Below are positions 22,813 to 62,069 of a stretch of 64,000 nucleotides of DNA, piece after piece; positions within the stretch are counted from its first letter, which is position 1, and the number at the start of each line of letters is the position of its first letter. The translations under genes and the position numbers were made by a program. The notes below the pieces were generated by a model. The model had not been told where the DNA came from. It worked only from the letters and a program-made list of their open reading frames with translations, and made no database searches. Source of the DNA: Carcharhinus longimanus (taxonomy: Eukaryota); the NCBI GenBank assembly GCA_030264375.1, contig JASCQW010000132.1, forward strand, positions 36,419,632 to 36,483,631, read 5' to 3'.

Positions 22813-27427
<4,615 letters not shown>

Positions 27428-30400
27428 TTAAGTTCACTGGTTTGGCTTAATGTAATTGGTCCATGTTACAAGTCGGATACAATCATTAAGCGAGGGAAAA
27501 AAACGTATAATGCAAAATGGCAAGATACAAAAATGGATACATTATTTTCTAAAGCTACAATGATCAAATTATAATATACGAACCAATTTCTAGATAAAAT
27601 GTTCGCAATACACCGGGTAATCAACGTTTTGACGTTTCTCTTTCTTGAGTTGACTTAATCTCAATTGGCAAGGTTGTAAAACAAAGTAGTTTTGTAAAAA
27701 CAATTGATAACCCCAAAGCTAAGAATCGTTTTTACTGAAGTACTGACAAGCTGACATTACCGGAGCTTCCCATGAGTTGTAAAATCCATATTGCATGTGC
27801 CAGATCACACCCAATGAAAGCAAAGCCATTGAAACACACACTGAATCATTTTCGTAATCAGACGGATTTTAAGATGATCTTATACACACCACCTTTCCCC
27901 TGACCTTCACGGTGATAATGACAAAAAAAACCACAGACCACAAACATGCAGGTTTATGACAATGAATTTTGAACACCGCTCCTGGTCGTTTTGTTGGCTT
28001 TGTTTCCTTCATGTTTTAAGCATAGCAAAACCGCCTTTTCTACACTTTACTCTCGGATACAAACCGGCTGCACCAAAACACATTTCTTTCCGCGAAACCC
28101 ACATGCCTTTGGGCTCATATTTGTGCCGTTTCACGGCACGTCGGAATCGATGAAAATTTGCGGAAAAAAAGGACAAAGCGACTATCTATTTAGCAGAACA
28201 CTGTTGTATTACAAGAGTAATCGCATCTGGATTTGCAATCACACGTTTTATGCTTGACATGAAACCGACGATTCTTTAGCCCCGCGTAAAGCGAAACAGG
28301 AAGAATTGTGTTCTACAAAGCCATTTCCGGCAATTACATGTTCGTTGGAAATATTTTAATGAACATCGGGGTGCTGCACTAGTAATGCGATGCAGATCCC
28401 AAAGCTTGAGCCGTTACAAATTTAAATAAATAAAATAATGTTCGTGTCCTACACGAGGACCGTTCTTAATGATCGAAAAGGCAAATTGACGTCTGCTGGT
28501 GCCCATACTCGGCAATTCTTACAGTTACTATAGCAACTTGGGTTACACTTGGCATTTCGCCAGAGGACCGAAAATAGAGCGAGCTTCTGCGGGAAGACCC
28601 ACGGCGCTCATGTGGAAATATCGCAAATGTATAAACCTTCAATCTGCAATCACGACCGGAGGAAGATCGGAGTAATCTAAACATGCAAATCTCACCGCCA
28701 TTTCAAATGAGCCCTAACACAGCGCACATCATCGTTTTTTTGGCTCTCCTTGAGATAGACTCCACGTCGACACTAGCTGTAAGTAGTGGCTTTTGTGATC
28801 ACACGATTTTCTTCTGCAAACGCCTGTCTCCTTCTCGGGGCGATTAAGAGGTGGCTGCGGCTCCAAAGCAGAGGATCACTTTGATAGTGCACGCCTATTG
28901 ATTAATAATTAATTAATAAGTAATCAGGAAACAGGAATTAATAAAGATTCAATGTTTCACTAAACTTTTGTGGTTTGTGGTCCATTTAACACGTGAAAAA
29001 GAAAAGAGTTTGTTGTACTCGAGAAACCAGCAAGAAAACTGACAACATGCAAATAACTGTGTGACGCACAGAATTCAGAAGACGCACAGAAACCAGAGCA
29101 AATAAATACCAGGCACTAGCGGCCAAGTGAAAAAAAGTCACTGCTACTCGCACTTATTTACAATACCTACACCGGTTTGCTTGCCATCAAAACAAAGGTA
29201 TTTATTAAGGTTCGTGTACATTTGCTTTAAAGAAAGCATTTTTTACCCACAGCGCCGACGCGCGACGTTCCGAAGTAATCAAACTACATCAGGTCATAAG
29301 CAATCAACATTTCTGTAGTTTCTTGTATTTCAGTTGGCTTTAAGACACACACAAACGACATGTAGATCTCAATGAAGTTTCAGCCTTCACCCTTTCAGCA
29401 GTCTGACACAACCAACAGAACTCAAGAGAAGTTCCCCGTTTGTTTACCCGACTTACACGGTTTGTCCTGCCCCCCCCCCCCCAACTCCATGCCCAGAAAC
29501 TCTCAAACCCACCCCCGCCCCCTCTTTTCTCATTGAGTTGGAAGTCGCAGAGATCGCGACACGTTCAGCAATTTGGAGTTCGCACGCCAGCTTTTAGGCG
29601 GCTCTCGTTATCGAGTACCCTAGACCCATCCCGCGGGGGAAAAGAGAGAAAAAAAGTAAAAAACAAACCACGTGTTCCCAAACGCTCCGCTCTCCCCGTC
29701 AGGCCCTTCTGATCAGAGTGAGATTAACAAAACGGATGAGGATTTACTGATCAATAGATTAAACACTCCATCTGTGAAACCTTCATGACGGGGAGACAAC
29801 TCGACCTTGGTACACACAACCATGTAAACACACGTGTTTTATTTCACAGACCCATGGGCTTCCGTTTATGCTGGGTAATTCATGTCAGCTGTGGAACTTC
29901 ATGTCTCCTTGAGTATTTTTTAAAGCCCGATGCGGGATGAACAATTAACCTTCATAACATCGTACTCAACCGTCCCAAAGCAACAAAGAAATAAGGAAGG
30001 ATGAAGTACAACAAAACAACGTAGACCAACTGACACATGGGTCTTCAAGATATTGTACAAGAGGAACCACACCTGAAAAATGCATAAAATATTCTAGGAC
30101 AGCCAGCAGCAATTCTGAGAAAAGCATGGTCTACTATAATATTTCAACTGTGGTGTTCAGCATGTATAATTGCAAAATAACCATAGCCAGAGCCAGTCAA
30201 AACATCGCCACTACGGTATAAACACACACACACATATAAACAAGATTTCTGAAAGCTACATTAAAACTATACAACAGCTCAGAACATAAATATTAGCTTA
30301 TTAACTAAAACTAACACATAGCATGACTGAAATCAAATACATGGGTAAAAGGAGGGGGGTGGGGAGGGTGCAAATTGGATTGTTTTATTTCCTTTTCATG

Positions 30401-31716
30401 GCCATTCTGATTTTGGAACAATCAAACTATTAGACGAGAAACAAGGTTATTCGGCTGCATATCATCCTTAGCTGCTCTCAGAACTTCTCAGTCATTTCGC
30501 TTAAGTACATCAGAGACCATTCTGTAACATTAAAACCCTGTATAACCGAGGGGACACGTTTACAAACACGGATTGTGTGCATGTGTTCTCACACAATCTC
30601 AGTTGTCCCTGTCAAGTTGCTGCTCGCTTGGATTAAGCCGAAAAGGTTTTGCGACCAAGACCATGTTGGCCCCTTGAAATCGGCATCCTCGCAATCAAAA
30701 CATCATTAGATTATATTGCAGCTCTCCGTCCCCAATCTAACGCCACCCGCCCCCCCCCCCCCCCCCNNNNNNNNNNNNNNNNNNNNNNNNNNNNNNNNNN
30801 NNNNNNNNNNNNNNNNNNNNNNNNNNNNNNNNNNNNNNNNNNNNNNNNNNNNNNNNNNNNNNNNNNCCCGCCACCCCCTGCCCCACTACTACCGCCATCA
30901 TCACTATCAACAAGACAACACAGGACTGGGATAGCAAACGACGCCAACACGTTCTCGGAATCCATTCTAATAAATCTAACTGGGCAAAAAGGCGAAAACA
31001 AAACACTTGCTCACTCCCACTCATTCAGCAAACCTCGTGCTCTGCCGGGGAAAATCACTGGTGTCAATCTGATACAGTCCTGGTTACCACTCACAAGAGA
31101 CAAAAAAAAGAGAAAACGTCCACAAACAGGCAGGGAAAAAAATGTTTCAACATATTAATAGTTGATTATAACAAAGCTTTACAGGCTTCCTGGTTGTTTA
31201 TTTACTTCTTGACACCACAAGTACTGTACAAGGATCCGAGGGGCACCGCCACCGACCGCCATGTTTACCGTCAAAACCCAAAGAAGTACTCCTGAGAAGT
31301 TAAGTTCAGAAAAGACCCCAGATTCGACTTTTCACCCAAACAGCCACACAAGCACATACCTCACCCTGTACGGATCCTAAGTCTATAAAATCGTTCCACT
31401 GGGTTCCCCGTTTGATGTCAAAATACACATTTGTACATGAGCTGACTAATAACACTTCGGCGAAACAGCAGCAAATTTCCACCCTGGTCAACTTTCAAAG
31501 AAATATAAATAAAAATCCGCGACACTTCGAACCCCCCAACTTGCAATGATCGAAAGCACAAATATCATTCCCTCGATACAAACGAGCAGAAAGGTCACAG
31601 ACTCAAACGCGGCGGAGAATCGAACATTTTTTTTGCAAATGAAGTGCGTAAACGAAACTGAGTGGAAATAAGGACGGGCGATAAAGCCGCTGAGTTGCTG
31701 TCAGCCTTAAGAGCGA

Positions 31717-31770
31717 GGAGAGAGAGCGAGAGAGGAGAGAGAGAGAGAGAAAAGAGAGAGAGAGAGAGAG
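31717..31770. repeat. Imperfect (GA)n microsatellite
   Basis: gagagagagcgagagaggagagagagagagaaaagagagagagagagag. Confidence 0.85.
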
Positions 31771-31828
31771 GCAGCACCGGGTGCATTTCAAACAGAGAAA
31801 TCGGCCTCAAGTGGCGGCCACAATGTAC

Positions 31829-32100
31829 CTGGGAGATCTTTCCCAGGCAGCGCAGCCTTGGTGAGACCATGCCCGGGGCACGGCGACTCCCAGCTCCAAG
31901 CCTGCACCCCGCGGAAAACAATGAAAGTTGTAGATCAGGGGAAAAAAATGAATCGCAGCCAAGCGGCCATCTTGCATGAGCTGCAGACGCTGTCAATTGC
32001 AATCGCAGAGGCTGCAGCTTCGAAAGAGAGAGAGAGAGAGAGAGGAGGGAGAGAGAGGAGAGAAAATAACATTCGTTAAACACTAGCCCCCTCCTTCAAC
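31829..32100 (-). other. BMI1: BMI1 non-coding first exon (5' boundary approximate)
   Basis: Minus strand ATTGACAGCGTCTGCAGCTCATGCAAGATGGCCGCTTGGCT...AACTTTCATTG resembles the mammalian BMI1 5'UTR as recalled; candidate donor CAG|gtacat at 31828. Confidence 0.7.
32024..32062. repeat. Imperfect (GA)n microsatellite
   Basis: agagagagagagagagagaggagggagagagaggagag. Confidence 0.8.
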
Positions 32101-32620
32101 CCTCACACCGACCCCTGGCAGGAGCCGATCAGCGCCCATGCAATATTTGTTCAGCCCGTTCTACCTGGTGGCGAGGCGGCCGGGCTATTCCCCGCTTGTA
32201 GAAGTTAGGAGGGAAAAAAAAACCCACCCCCGGAGCCCCAGTGATGGGTGCCGTGAAACTGACACCGTCCCCAAAATGGCTCGAGTTCGACCGCCCCGCT
32301 CCGTCACGTGGTCTCATTCCTTAAGGGTGGCCTGGGAATTAGAGTCGGTGTAATCAGAGACGATTCCACCCCCCTCCCCTTCCCCTCCTCTCCCCTTCCC
32401 CTCCTCTCCCTCCGCCTCCTCCTTCCCCCCCCCCCCACCCCAATCCTCTCACCNNNNNNNNNNNNNNNNNNNNNNNNNNNNNNNNNNNNNNNNNNNNNNN
32501 NNNNNNNNNNNNNNNNNNNNNNNNNNNNNNNNNNNNNNNNNNNNNNNNNNNNNCCCCCACCCCACCCCAATCCTCTCACCGCACCGCCCTCCTCTACCAC
32601 CCATCTACCTCTTCAAAAAA
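32080..32620 (-). promoter_or_regulatory. BMI1: BMI1 promoter / CpG island
   Basis: CpG-dense; GC box ccgccccgc 32291-32299; E-box CACGTG 32305-32310; long C-rich tract ending in a gap. Confidence 0.7.
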
Positions 32621-59339: not shown

Positions 59340-60590
59340 CAATGCACAAACAAGTTTGATTAGCTCCCATGCCTGTTTATACAAAACTTGGATGGAGACC
59401 TCTACCCAAAGCATTATTTTTATTTTTGTCAGTAACCTGCAAGGTCTTGTGATGAAATGGATAGTGTCCGTGTCTCTGAGCAAGAAGTTTTGGGTTTGAG
59501 CCCCAATCCAGGACTTGATGGCCATAGAAGTTGTGTTCATGGTGTGGCATAACAGGTTGATTATCAACTTGTGAATCCTTCCAATATGCCTGATGGCAAG
59601 TGTTAAGAATGGAACAATCTCCTGGTTCATTAGAATCTGTAGATAACAATGACAAGACACTGCAATACCTTGCCAAACATAATCATGGACCAATTCCATG
59701 ATTGACAAGGCCCTCCTAGGGCACTGTATTTGAAGAGAAAGAGGGTTAGTAATGTCCAGTCCCCAAGAATTAACATAAAAATAATTGTCAGGTTTGTGTG
59801 AGGTACTGATCATTATTGACTTCAATTTTGCCACAGCTCCTTCATGTCACATGCAGTCAATTGCTACCTTGATGTCAAGGACAATGACTCCCCTGGAATT
59901 CCTGTCTTTATGTTTGGACTATAGCTGGAGCTGAACAACCCCATTGAAACCTAAATTGAACATAGTGGAGTCAGTTTTTGGTGAGCAAATGTTGGCAGCA
60001 ATGTTTATAATTCCTTCCATCACTCTGCTGATGATTGAAAGTGGACTTATAGGGGAATAATTATTTGGGTTAAATTTGCTCTTTTCCTGGACAGGGCATA
60101 TCTGGCCTATTTTTTATATTGTCAGTTAGATTCCAAGCCTTTTTAGCTGAATTGCATTCACCTATCTGGAAGCGTAAGTAGTCCTGGAGCACAGGTTTTC
60201 ATCTCTACAACCAACATATTGTCACAGCCCAGAGCCCAAAGCCTTTGTTGTGTCCACCTCACTTAGCTATTTCTTGATATCATGTAGATTCAATCAAATC
60301 GACTAAAGACTGGCTTCTATAATACTGGGGACTTCAGGAGGAGACCAAGAAAAGTAATTTACGCCAAACTTCAGGAAGTTCTTTTGCACTCCTATGCTGA
60401 GATCTGTGATTACTGCAAATGGGAATATTTTTGTAGCCTTCAGCACACCCCATGATTTACTTTGTTATTTACCATCATCTGCAATTTAATATGGCAACAC
60501 TGCAGAGCTTTCATCTAATATGTTGGTTTGAGATCACTTACTCTCTCATTAGCATTCTGCTTCCATTGTTTAGCATACAGTAATCCTGCA
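59340..60590 (-). mobile_element. Old degenerate LINE (probable RT/endonuclease remnants); seems to resume at about 62070-62170
   Basis: Recognised by eye as decayed elasmobranch LINE sequence; broken frames, CpG-depleted. Confidence 0.5.
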
Positions 60591-60591
60591 T

Positions 60592-62069
60592 TATAGGCCA
60601 GTTAGTCTTACTTTGGTGGTCAGTAAGTTAATGGAAAGGGTCCTGAGAGATAGGCTTTATGATCACTTGGAAAGATGCACTCTAATCCAGGATAGTCAGC
60701 ACGCTTTCGTGAGGGATAAGTCCTGCCTCACAAATTTGATTGATTTCTTTGAGGAGGTAACTAAGTGTGTGGATGAAGGTAGAGCAGTTAATGTTGTATA
60801 CATGGATTTTAGTAAGGCGTTTGATAAGGTTCCCCATGGTAGACTCATGAAGAAGATAAGGAGGTGTGGAATAGAAGGAAATTTGGCCAATTGGATAAGT
60901 AACTGGCTGTATCATAGAAGACAGAGGGTGGTGGTGGAGGGAAAATTNNNNNNNNNNNNNNNNNNNNNNNNNNNNNNNNNNNNNNNNNNNNNNNNNNNNN
61001 NNNNNNNNNNNNNNNNNNNNNNNNNNNNNNNNNNNNNNNNNNNNNNNNNNNNNNNNNNNNNNNNNNNNNNNNNNNNNNNNNNNNNNNNNNNNNNNNNNNN
61101 NNNNNNNNNNNNNNNNNNNNNNNNNNNNNNNNNNNNNNNNNNNNNNNNNNNNNNNNNNNNNNNNNNNNNNNNNNNNNNNNNNNNNNNNNNNNNNNNNNNN
61201 NNNNNNNNNNNNNNNNNNNNNNNNNNNNNNNNNNNNNNNNNNNNNNNNNNNNNNNNNNNNNNNNNNNNNNNNNNNNNNNNNNNNNNNNNNNNNNNNNNNN
61301 NNNNNNNNNNNNNNNNNNNNNNNNNNNNNNNNNNNNNNNNNNNNNNNNNNNNNNNNNNNNNNNNNNNNNNNNNNNNNNNNNNNNNNNNNNNNNNNNNNNN
61401 NNNNNNNNNNNNNNNNNNNNNNNNNNNNNNNNNNNNNNNNNNNNNNNNNNNNNNNNNNNNNNNNNNNNNNNNNNNNNNNNNNNNNNNNNNNNNNNNNNNN
61501 NNNNNNNNNNNNNNNNNNNNNNNNNNNNNNNNNNNNNNNNNNNNNNNNNNNNNNNNNNNNNNNNNNNNNNNNNNNNNNNNNNNNNNNNNNNNNNNNNNNN
61601 NNNNNNNNNNNNNNNNNNNNNNNNNNNNNNNNNNNNNNNNNNNNNNNNNNNNNNNNNNNNNNNNNNNNNNNNNNNNNNNNNNNNNNNNNNNNNNNNNNNN
61701 NNNNNNNNNNNNNNNNNNNNNNNNNNNNNNNNNNNNNNNNNNNNNNNNNNNNNNNNNNNNNNNNNNNNNNNNNNNNNNNNNNNNNNNNNNNNNNNNNNNN
61801 NNNNNNNNNNNNNNNNNNNNNNNNNNNNNNNNNNNNGAGATATAGGAGGGATGTCTGAGGTAGATTCTTCACTCAGAGAGTGGTTGGGGTGTGGAATAGA
61901 CTGCCTGCTGTGACAGTGGAGTCGGATACTTTAGGAACTTAAGTAGTTATTGCATAGGCACATGGAGCACACCAGAATGATAGGGCATGGGATAGCTTGA
62001 TCTTGGGATTGGACATAGCTCGGCACAACATTGAGGACTGAAGGCCCTGTACTGTGCTATGTTCTATAG
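60592..62069 (+). mobile_element. Young 5'-truncated CR1 LINE spanning a gap of about 890 N
   Basis: YRPVSLTLVVSKLMERVLRDRL...QHAFVRDKSCLTNLIDFFEEVT...VVYMDFSKAFDKVPH is CR1 RT; 3' tail gaaggccctgtactgtgctatgttctat. Confidence 0.92.

Follow-up and report, generated by a model that had tools for sequence, protein, structure and literature searches.

What keeps a short upstream open reading frame (uORF) in the leader of BMI1: its translation, its peptide, or the DNA in which its start codon is embedded? BMI1, a subunit of the Polycomb complex PRC1, is sensitive to dosage and has ties to both stem-cell renewal and cancer. Here, the question is addressed in a window of 64,000 nucleotides (the whole stretch of DNA that was analysed) from Carcharhinus longimanus, in which an earlier note had singled out such a uORF.

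The BMI1 leader and its upstream reading frame

The gene downstream of the uORF is BMI1: the first coding exon and the BMI1 chains of the PDB agree at 37 of 37 residues, the best protein matches to this exon are BMI1 of sharks, rays and a chimaera, and all BMI1 coding exons map to 27364-22816. Upstream, approximately 2 kb separate COMMD3 from BMI1 exon 1, and this order of genes underlies the COMMD3-BMI1 read-through models of many species. Elsewhere in the window there is a single tRNA-Asn(GTT) gene (51438-51512), and a fragment resembling a LINE reverse transcriptase by eye (60574-60950) runs into an assembly gap. The features of the locus are collected in table 1.

Table 1. Features of the BMI1 5′ region, in window coordinates.
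Feature	Positions	Strand	Remarks
COMMD3	37859-34039	minus	upstream of BMI1, same strand
Second deeply conserved block, promoter-like	32256..32352	minus	E-box CACGTG 32310-32305; opposite-strand YY1-type motif 32273-32281
BMI1 exon 1, 3′ part	31829..32016	minus	donor GT at 31828; X2 and X4 contigs end at 31829
Weak-context ATG, other frame, 7 nt upstream of uORF	31975..31977	minus	55 codons with exon 1b
Start-codon context, YY1-type motif	31963..31974	minus	covers codons 1-3, where the ORF is kept best
uORF MAAWLRFIFFP*	31935..31970	minus	11 codons and TGA; A at -3, G at +4
36 nt past uORF stop	31899..31934	minus	invariant in X2 and X7; outside this species' uORF
Strong-context ATG	31868..31870	minus	A lies 65 nt past last base of uORF stop
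Untranslated-region exon 1b, 199 nt	28696..28894	minus	joints in relatives' runs; AG acceptor places start at 28894
9-codon uORF in exon 1b	28703..28732	minus	stop, then ATG at 28701 one base later
Strong-context ATG, splices in frame to BMI1	28699..28701	minus	12-residue extension
BMI1 exon 2, main ATG at 27334	27223..27364	minus	relatives' joints; BMI1 chain match

The leader exons were placed with contigs from the runs of four relatives (X1-X4) over 26900-32440; the RNA status of these runs is presumed, and their joints are GT-AG. The uORF is covered in two of the four runs (X2 and X4), on contigs ending at the 31829 donor, while X1, the closest of the runs, and X3 are without exon 1 coverage, which counts neither for nor against the exon. 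The joint of exon 1b to exon 2 (27364/28696) is present in three of the four, and that of exon 1 to exon 1b (28893/31828), with GT-AG ends, in one (X4). In relatives X2 and X4, then, the uORF belongs to a spliced mRNA leader. The earlier note had allowed that the segment might lie upstream of the transcription start site (TSS); since it sits inside a spliced exon in these relatives, this is not simply so. None of the four runs shows a direct joint between exon 1 and exon 2; three chondrichthyan protein models imply that such joining takes place. Exon 1 and exon 1b are covered at different contig depths, but depth cannot rank gene parts, hence no isoform shares are given.

Translation of 31970-31935 on the minus strand bears out the peptide MAAWLRFIFFP* and the strong Kozak context that had been claimed for it, and places an AUG with an in-frame stop, that is, an AUG-initiated uORF, upstream of the main BMI1 AUG. 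Its start context is the better of the two (the main AUG has A at -3 and C at +4). A strong-context ATG followed by a stop within 12 codons is found for 100 of the 2532 ATGs of the window; short reading frames of this kind are therefore common, and the case for the uORF rests on placement and conservation. The uORF block has one match in its own genome, and a metagenome scan with an 18-nt core of the block gave 39 loci, none with matching flanks and all put down to chance.

Counted from 32016 and with exon 1b included, the leader is 417 nt long and holds six upstream ATGs. Five of these besides the uORF (31977, 31870, 28732, 28729 and 28701), and likewise exon 1b, were absent from the earlier note. 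The uORF stop is separated from the main ATG by 335 nt with exon 1b and by 136 nt without it, with further AUGs between. The ATG at 31977 is lost in relative X7 and kept in X2. That at 31870 is kept in both; without exon 1b it shares the BMI1 frame and would add a 24-residue extension, with exon 1b it opens a 30-codon uORF, and matching N-termini occur in ray, sawshark and chimaera models (P0004, P0002 and P0006). The N-terminus of model P0003 matches the 12-residue extension that begins at 28701. The 10 codons before the BMI1 ATG (27337-27364) are open and well conserved as protein (96-98% over the exon in the eight top matches, seven of which are named cartilaginous fishes), and a YY1-type motif lies within them on the opposite strand (27344-27353). 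The Carcharodon BMI1 model P0001 takes its first coding exon, as an alternative, from an intronic segment at 28071-28118, where 15 of 16 residues match.

Conservation among close and distant relatives

Close relatives were compared base by base over 31785-32016, with contigs in two of four runs (X2 and X7); X5 and X8 have no exon 1 contig. Variable sites number 5/95 over 31899-31993 against 10/47 just 3′ of it (Fisher p=0.007; windows picked after viewing the data). By the same downstream measure of 10/47, the first nine codons (31943-31970) show no difference in either relative (p=0.011; windows picked post hoc), and the 36 nt that follow the uORF stop are likewise without a variable site (0/36 against 10/47 in 31852-31898; p=0.004, again with windows picked post hoc). 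Within the uORF, 3 of 36 sites vary, all at the end of the ORF. The change in X2 is a missense one at codon 10. In X7, the T run is longer by two bases and TGA has become CGA, so that the uORF stop is lost (one contig of depth 7, beside the T run); read by hand, its frame closes near 31894 after 25 codons, still inside exon 1. Exon 1 of X4 has five differences and one gap.

Distant relatives are represented by BMI1 protein models that read through the leader. In the 128 proteins returned, the block is read in the +1 frame by 24 and in the +2 frame by four, as mis-extended BMI1 models from birds, goat, a frog, an eel, a characin, three percomorph fishes and six others. A +1-frame residue fixes bases 2-3 of a uORF codon, and a +2-frame residue fixes bases 1 and 3, so protein letters speak of compatibility only. 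The 28 records were picked by similarity in one frame, so frameshifted orthologues are missed; they are bird-heavy and not independent, and their splices come from gene models. Five protein records (P0123-P0126 and P0038) have Trp where the window has TGA at 31995-31993; since this TGA may have been read as Trp, such records are not to be taken as real extensions.

Within this sample, 28/28 records are compatible with codon 1 being ATG and codon 11 a stop. Codon 11 is TGA-compatible in all 24 of the +1-frame records, in which positions 2-3 are constantly GA and the next base varies (Glu/Asp), and in all four of the +2-frame records, in which positions 1 and 3 are T and A. The length from start to stop is 10 codons in 28/28 records and 11 in the window. 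Upstream of the uORF the spacer is 22, 23 or 26 nt across records, which is not a series of multiples of three. Downstream, the stop lies 80-88 nt before the main ATG in 22 of the 23 records that hold both, and 166 nt before it in the characin. Frame and stop are therefore compatible throughout a biased sample of bony-vertebrate type (28/28), and are lost in one of the two close relatives. The persistence of the stop position that the earlier note had proposed holds roughly, then, with X7 as the exception.

The human counterpart is already catalogued. Ji et al. 2015 (PMC4739776) call four BMI1 uORFs translated by RibORF, among them NM_005180:388-420 (33 nt; hg19 chr10:22610526-22610559), which begins 26 nt after the uORF at 308-361; mouse Bmi1 has a counterpart at NM_007552:353-385, also of 33 nt. 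For the preceding human uORF (308-361), Sandmann et al. 2023 report the peptide, which is similar to the residues immediately ahead of the block in the mammal-like record P0123, where the gap is also 26 nt. By the exon coordinates of Mackowiak et al. 2015, the human uORF stop lies 66+19 = 85 nt before the main ATG, the same distance as in goat, and the residues deduced from the protein records are compatible with the human 10-codon ORF. On the strength of the 26-nt gap and the 85-nt distance matching that of goat, human NM_005180:388-420 is the orthologue of the uORF in the window. The deep conservation claimed for block, start and frame is thus upheld by protein records, the human and mouse counterpart and the relatives' contigs taken together.

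Other published data on this ORF are sparser. It is absent, among the rows listed, from the available part of a set of 221 highly translated heart sORFs, and the Ribo-ITP supplements have no BMI1 row. The list by Ji et al. of uORFs translated more than three-fold above the CDS has, in the part available, a different BMI1 uORF only (PMC4739776). In mouse NIH3T3 cells, Denr knockdown changes Bmi1 translation efficiency by a log2FC of -0.047 (adjusted p 0.97; PMC6547434), so the fall in main-ORF translation that marks DENR-dependent reinitiation is not seen in this one cell line, under knockdown only.

Peptide, RNA element or DNA element

The earlier note had offered a conserved hydrophobic micropeptide as one explanation, to which sequence-dependent stalling of the ribosome by the nascent peptide may be added. 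Overall hydrophobic character and the first three residues do persist, and the human peptide passed the BLASTP conservation filter against mouse (PMC4739776), but Trp4, Arg6, Ile8, Phe9 and the C-terminus are not constant. Trp4 is excluded in five records, all four +2-frame percomorph-type ones and the fish-like P0125, where a stop is possible at that codon; records from amniotes, the eel and the characin exclude Arg at codon 6, that of the characin also excludes Phe at codon 9, and one percomorph excludes Ile at codon 8. The frog has a one-codon shift, the window has one extra codon, and the C-terminus is forced to differ in other records. Human and mouse differ with a Ka of 0.043 at a Ks of 0 (PMC4739776), and the changes in X2 and X7 all alter the peptide (3/3, none silent; these are few sites and carry little weight). 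The forced residue differences, the frameshift and stop loss of X7, the missense change of X2 and the Ka and Ks values speak against a conserved micropeptide. An excess of silent over replacement changes, as expected of a conserved-peptide uORF (CPuORF), is not found, at few sites and low power. The ORF is also missing from the BMI1 rows listed in the available part of a PhyloCSF-based sORF set, a weak point because the scan rule is unclear. Third positions of codons 2, 3, 6 and 8 are identical in the window fish, birds and goat, which selection on the peptide alone would not be expected to maintain from fish to goat. We regard a peptide-level explanation as very improbable; given that start, length and position are kept and the peptide is not, the uORF is likely to be a translational brake rather than a small protein. 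It is also quite improbable that the block is an RNA element (a structure, a protein site or a splice signal for COMMD3-BMI1 read-through) or a +1-frame extension of BMI1. Points in favour of these options are nucleotide-level conservation inside an exon, a pyrimidine tract and several AG dinucleotides ahead of the block, and the many gene models that run through it in the +1 frame and on into BMI1. However, the block folds no better than shuffled sequences (z +1.28, +1.27 and +0.44) and has no Rfam match near threshold, so neither a stable fold nor a family match marks it as a structured cis-regulatory RNA; for 31829-31934, which is less conserved, the fold has a z of -2.08. In the human read-through protein P0071 the block is not used. 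Coding of the block as a +1-frame BMI1 extension is rejected on account of the phase to BMI1, which varies between +1 and +2 from one lineage to another, and of the stop near 31894 that closes the +1 frame in both relatives.

A serious rival, of which the earlier note had named the YY1 site as an alternative, is an element that acts purely at the DNA level, in which YY1-type and neighbouring factor sites at the BMI1 promoter or first exon are what is kept, the ATG is the core of a motif and translation is incidental. A pattern built from what we take to be the YY1 consensus matches over the uORF AUG at 31964-31973 and so predicts a YY1 motif there. This motif, over codons 1-3, is the best-kept part of the ORF, and the third base of codon 2 is C in some lineages and G in others, both of which fit the presumed consensus. 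The invariance of the 36 nt past the stop also suits a DNA element. The 64 kb contain the pattern AANATGGCSG three times where 0.57 are expected (4/100 shuffles), and each of the three lies in the BMI1 5′ region, but this strict form was picked after the fact and the looser AANATGGCB shows no enrichment (7 against 7.5). The start of one human transcript model falls 13 nt ahead of the uORF, and an overlap of YY1 motifs with start codons just downstream of TSSs has been described (PMC3429435). Furthermore, a second block 300 nt upstream is equally deeply conserved, with a YY1-type motif on the other strand and no sense AUG involved. Its conservation (32352-32256) reaches from this fish to an eel, a quail and a mammal-like record, which shows that the BMI1 5′ region keeps DNA elements over the same time span. 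This block is likely to be a MYC-responsive core of the BMI1 promoter, in which a MYC E-box has been described (PMC8056379). An ATG at 32317 has a matching start in the eel protein model P0062. Against an element of DNA only, nothing in it predicts the TGA-compatible codon 11, the changes of length by triplets or the 80-88 nt spacing across an intron, and the human ORF has been called translated (PMC4739776); a DNA element accounts for the invariant flank and the silent sites, not for the stop and the spacer. We consider the DNA-only account possible, although unlikely, and rank it second. The account ranked first is a dual one, in which the uORF is translated within such an element; the two are not exclusive.

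A candidate cis-acting brake on BMI1

The dual account, which we favour as somewhat probable, is that of a uORF that likely acts in cis and permits reinitiation; it lies within an element conserved at the nucleotide level, and its start codon is at the same time part of a YY1-type motif. Ribosomes scanning the leader would initiate at the strong uORF AUG and terminate after 10-11 codons, and the main AUG of BMI1 would be reached only through reinitiation or leaky scanning. On leaders that bear the uORF, most scanning subunits would initiate there, and a share would resume scanning and reinitiate. Selection appears to keep the AUG, the short frame and, in bony vertebrates, a stop approximately 85 nt before the main AUG, while the peptide sequence would be free to change. 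The same bases also lie in an element that probably binds transcription factors, the AUG being covered by the YY1-type motif; this would account for the persistence of silent positions and of the 36 nt past the stop. On a preproinsulin mRNA, efficient reinitiation is reported with a spacer of 79-140 nt (review PMC10275272), and 80-88 nt falls inside this range. In this fish, the next AUG after the uORF would be that at 31870, which is strong and, on leaders that lack exon 1b, shares the BMI1 frame; where exon 1b is present, the 9-codon uORF and then the in-frame AUG at 28701 would come next.

Points in favour of a brake are the human translation call, the mouse counterpart, the compatibility of codon 11 with a stop, the constant length, the spacing and the better AUG context; in X7, too, the frame closes again inside exon 1 despite the lost stop. 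Several observations point the other way. Conservation inside the ORF is no higher than after its stop, as a DNA element would give; the stop is lost in X7; P0125 is without Trp at codon 4 and may have a stop; Denr knockdown is without effect; the ORF is absent from the heart sORFs; and the spacer of this fish measures 136 or 335 nt and holds further AUGs. Taken together, the comparisons favour a real, deeply conserved uORF with a likely brake function and disfavour a micropeptide. We infer translation of the uORF in this fish, repression by it, reinitiation after it and YY1 binding of its region. A bolder extension, which we regard as doubtful, is that of an overprinted element of a dozen bases, at once a YY1-type promoter site and the strong upstream start codon of a 10-codon frame with a stop approximately 85 nt before BMI1, through which reinitiation would have set BMI1 dosage since the origin of jawed vertebrates; cartilaginous fishes would reinitiate at alternative in-frame AUGs and so make N-terminally extended BMI1.

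The kind of element is well known. The human and mouse BMI1 uORF (PMC4739776) has the same position in exon 1, the same spacing from a preceding conserved TGA in the mammal-like record, and closes before the main AUG; it differs in that the human form has 10 codons and 85 nt to the main AUG, against 11 codons and 136 or 335 nt in the window. That uORF is a catalogue entry, and the available part of PMC4739776 does not report its conservation beyond mouse. With the type of GCN4 uORF1 and ATF4 uORF1 (PMC10275272) it shares a short, non-overlapping frame that stops well upstream of the main AUG and is independent of its sequence, whereas the BMI1 uORF shows no sign of eIF2-dependent switching and is much more conserved at the nucleotide level, and Denr knockdown leaves Bmi1 unaffected. 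CPuORFs (the ESUCA set, PMC7530721; the SLC6A8 and FAM13B uORFs, PMC4568590) are also deeply conserved in vertebrate leaders, but the BMI1 uORF is without the silent-over-replacement excess, and its peptide and stop vary. YY1 motifs over start codons (PARP-1 BM7, PMC3429435, citing Xi et al.) are alike in their ATGGC core, Kozak-like context and place just inside the first exon; in the BMI1 leader, by contrast, the ATG opens a uORF rather than the main ORF, and the YY1 site is predicted. Hyperconserved vertebrate 5′UTRs (Byeon et al., bioRxiv 10.1101/2020.06.29.165878) likewise combine nucleotide-level leader conservation with a developmental regulator, while the conserved stretch of BMI1 is approximately 100 nt and BMI1 is not named in the main text of that study.

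Among titles and the opening lines of abstracts, the literature search found no study of BMI1 uORF function or of its conservation to cartilaginous fishes. The main text of the ESUCA paper (PMC7530721) does not name BMI1, although the gene lists of ESUCA, the hyperconserved 5′UTR set and an ncORF catalogue (PMC13010147) may include the uORF. A review of BMI1 regulation covers transcription factors and microRNAs, and the term uORF is absent from its available part (PMC8056379). What appears to be new here is the deep conservation to a cartilaginous fish; as the element is of a well-known kind and the human ORF was already catalogued, the surprise is limited.

A uORF that extends from shark to human with a fixed spacer offers one AUG and one stop to edit, through which the tuning of BMI1 at the level of translation could be probed. 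Variants at the uORF AUG or stop would be candidates for altered BMI1 dosage. The locus also provides a clean case in which to ask what preserves deeply conserved upstream AUGs, their translation or their place at the core of a YY1 site.
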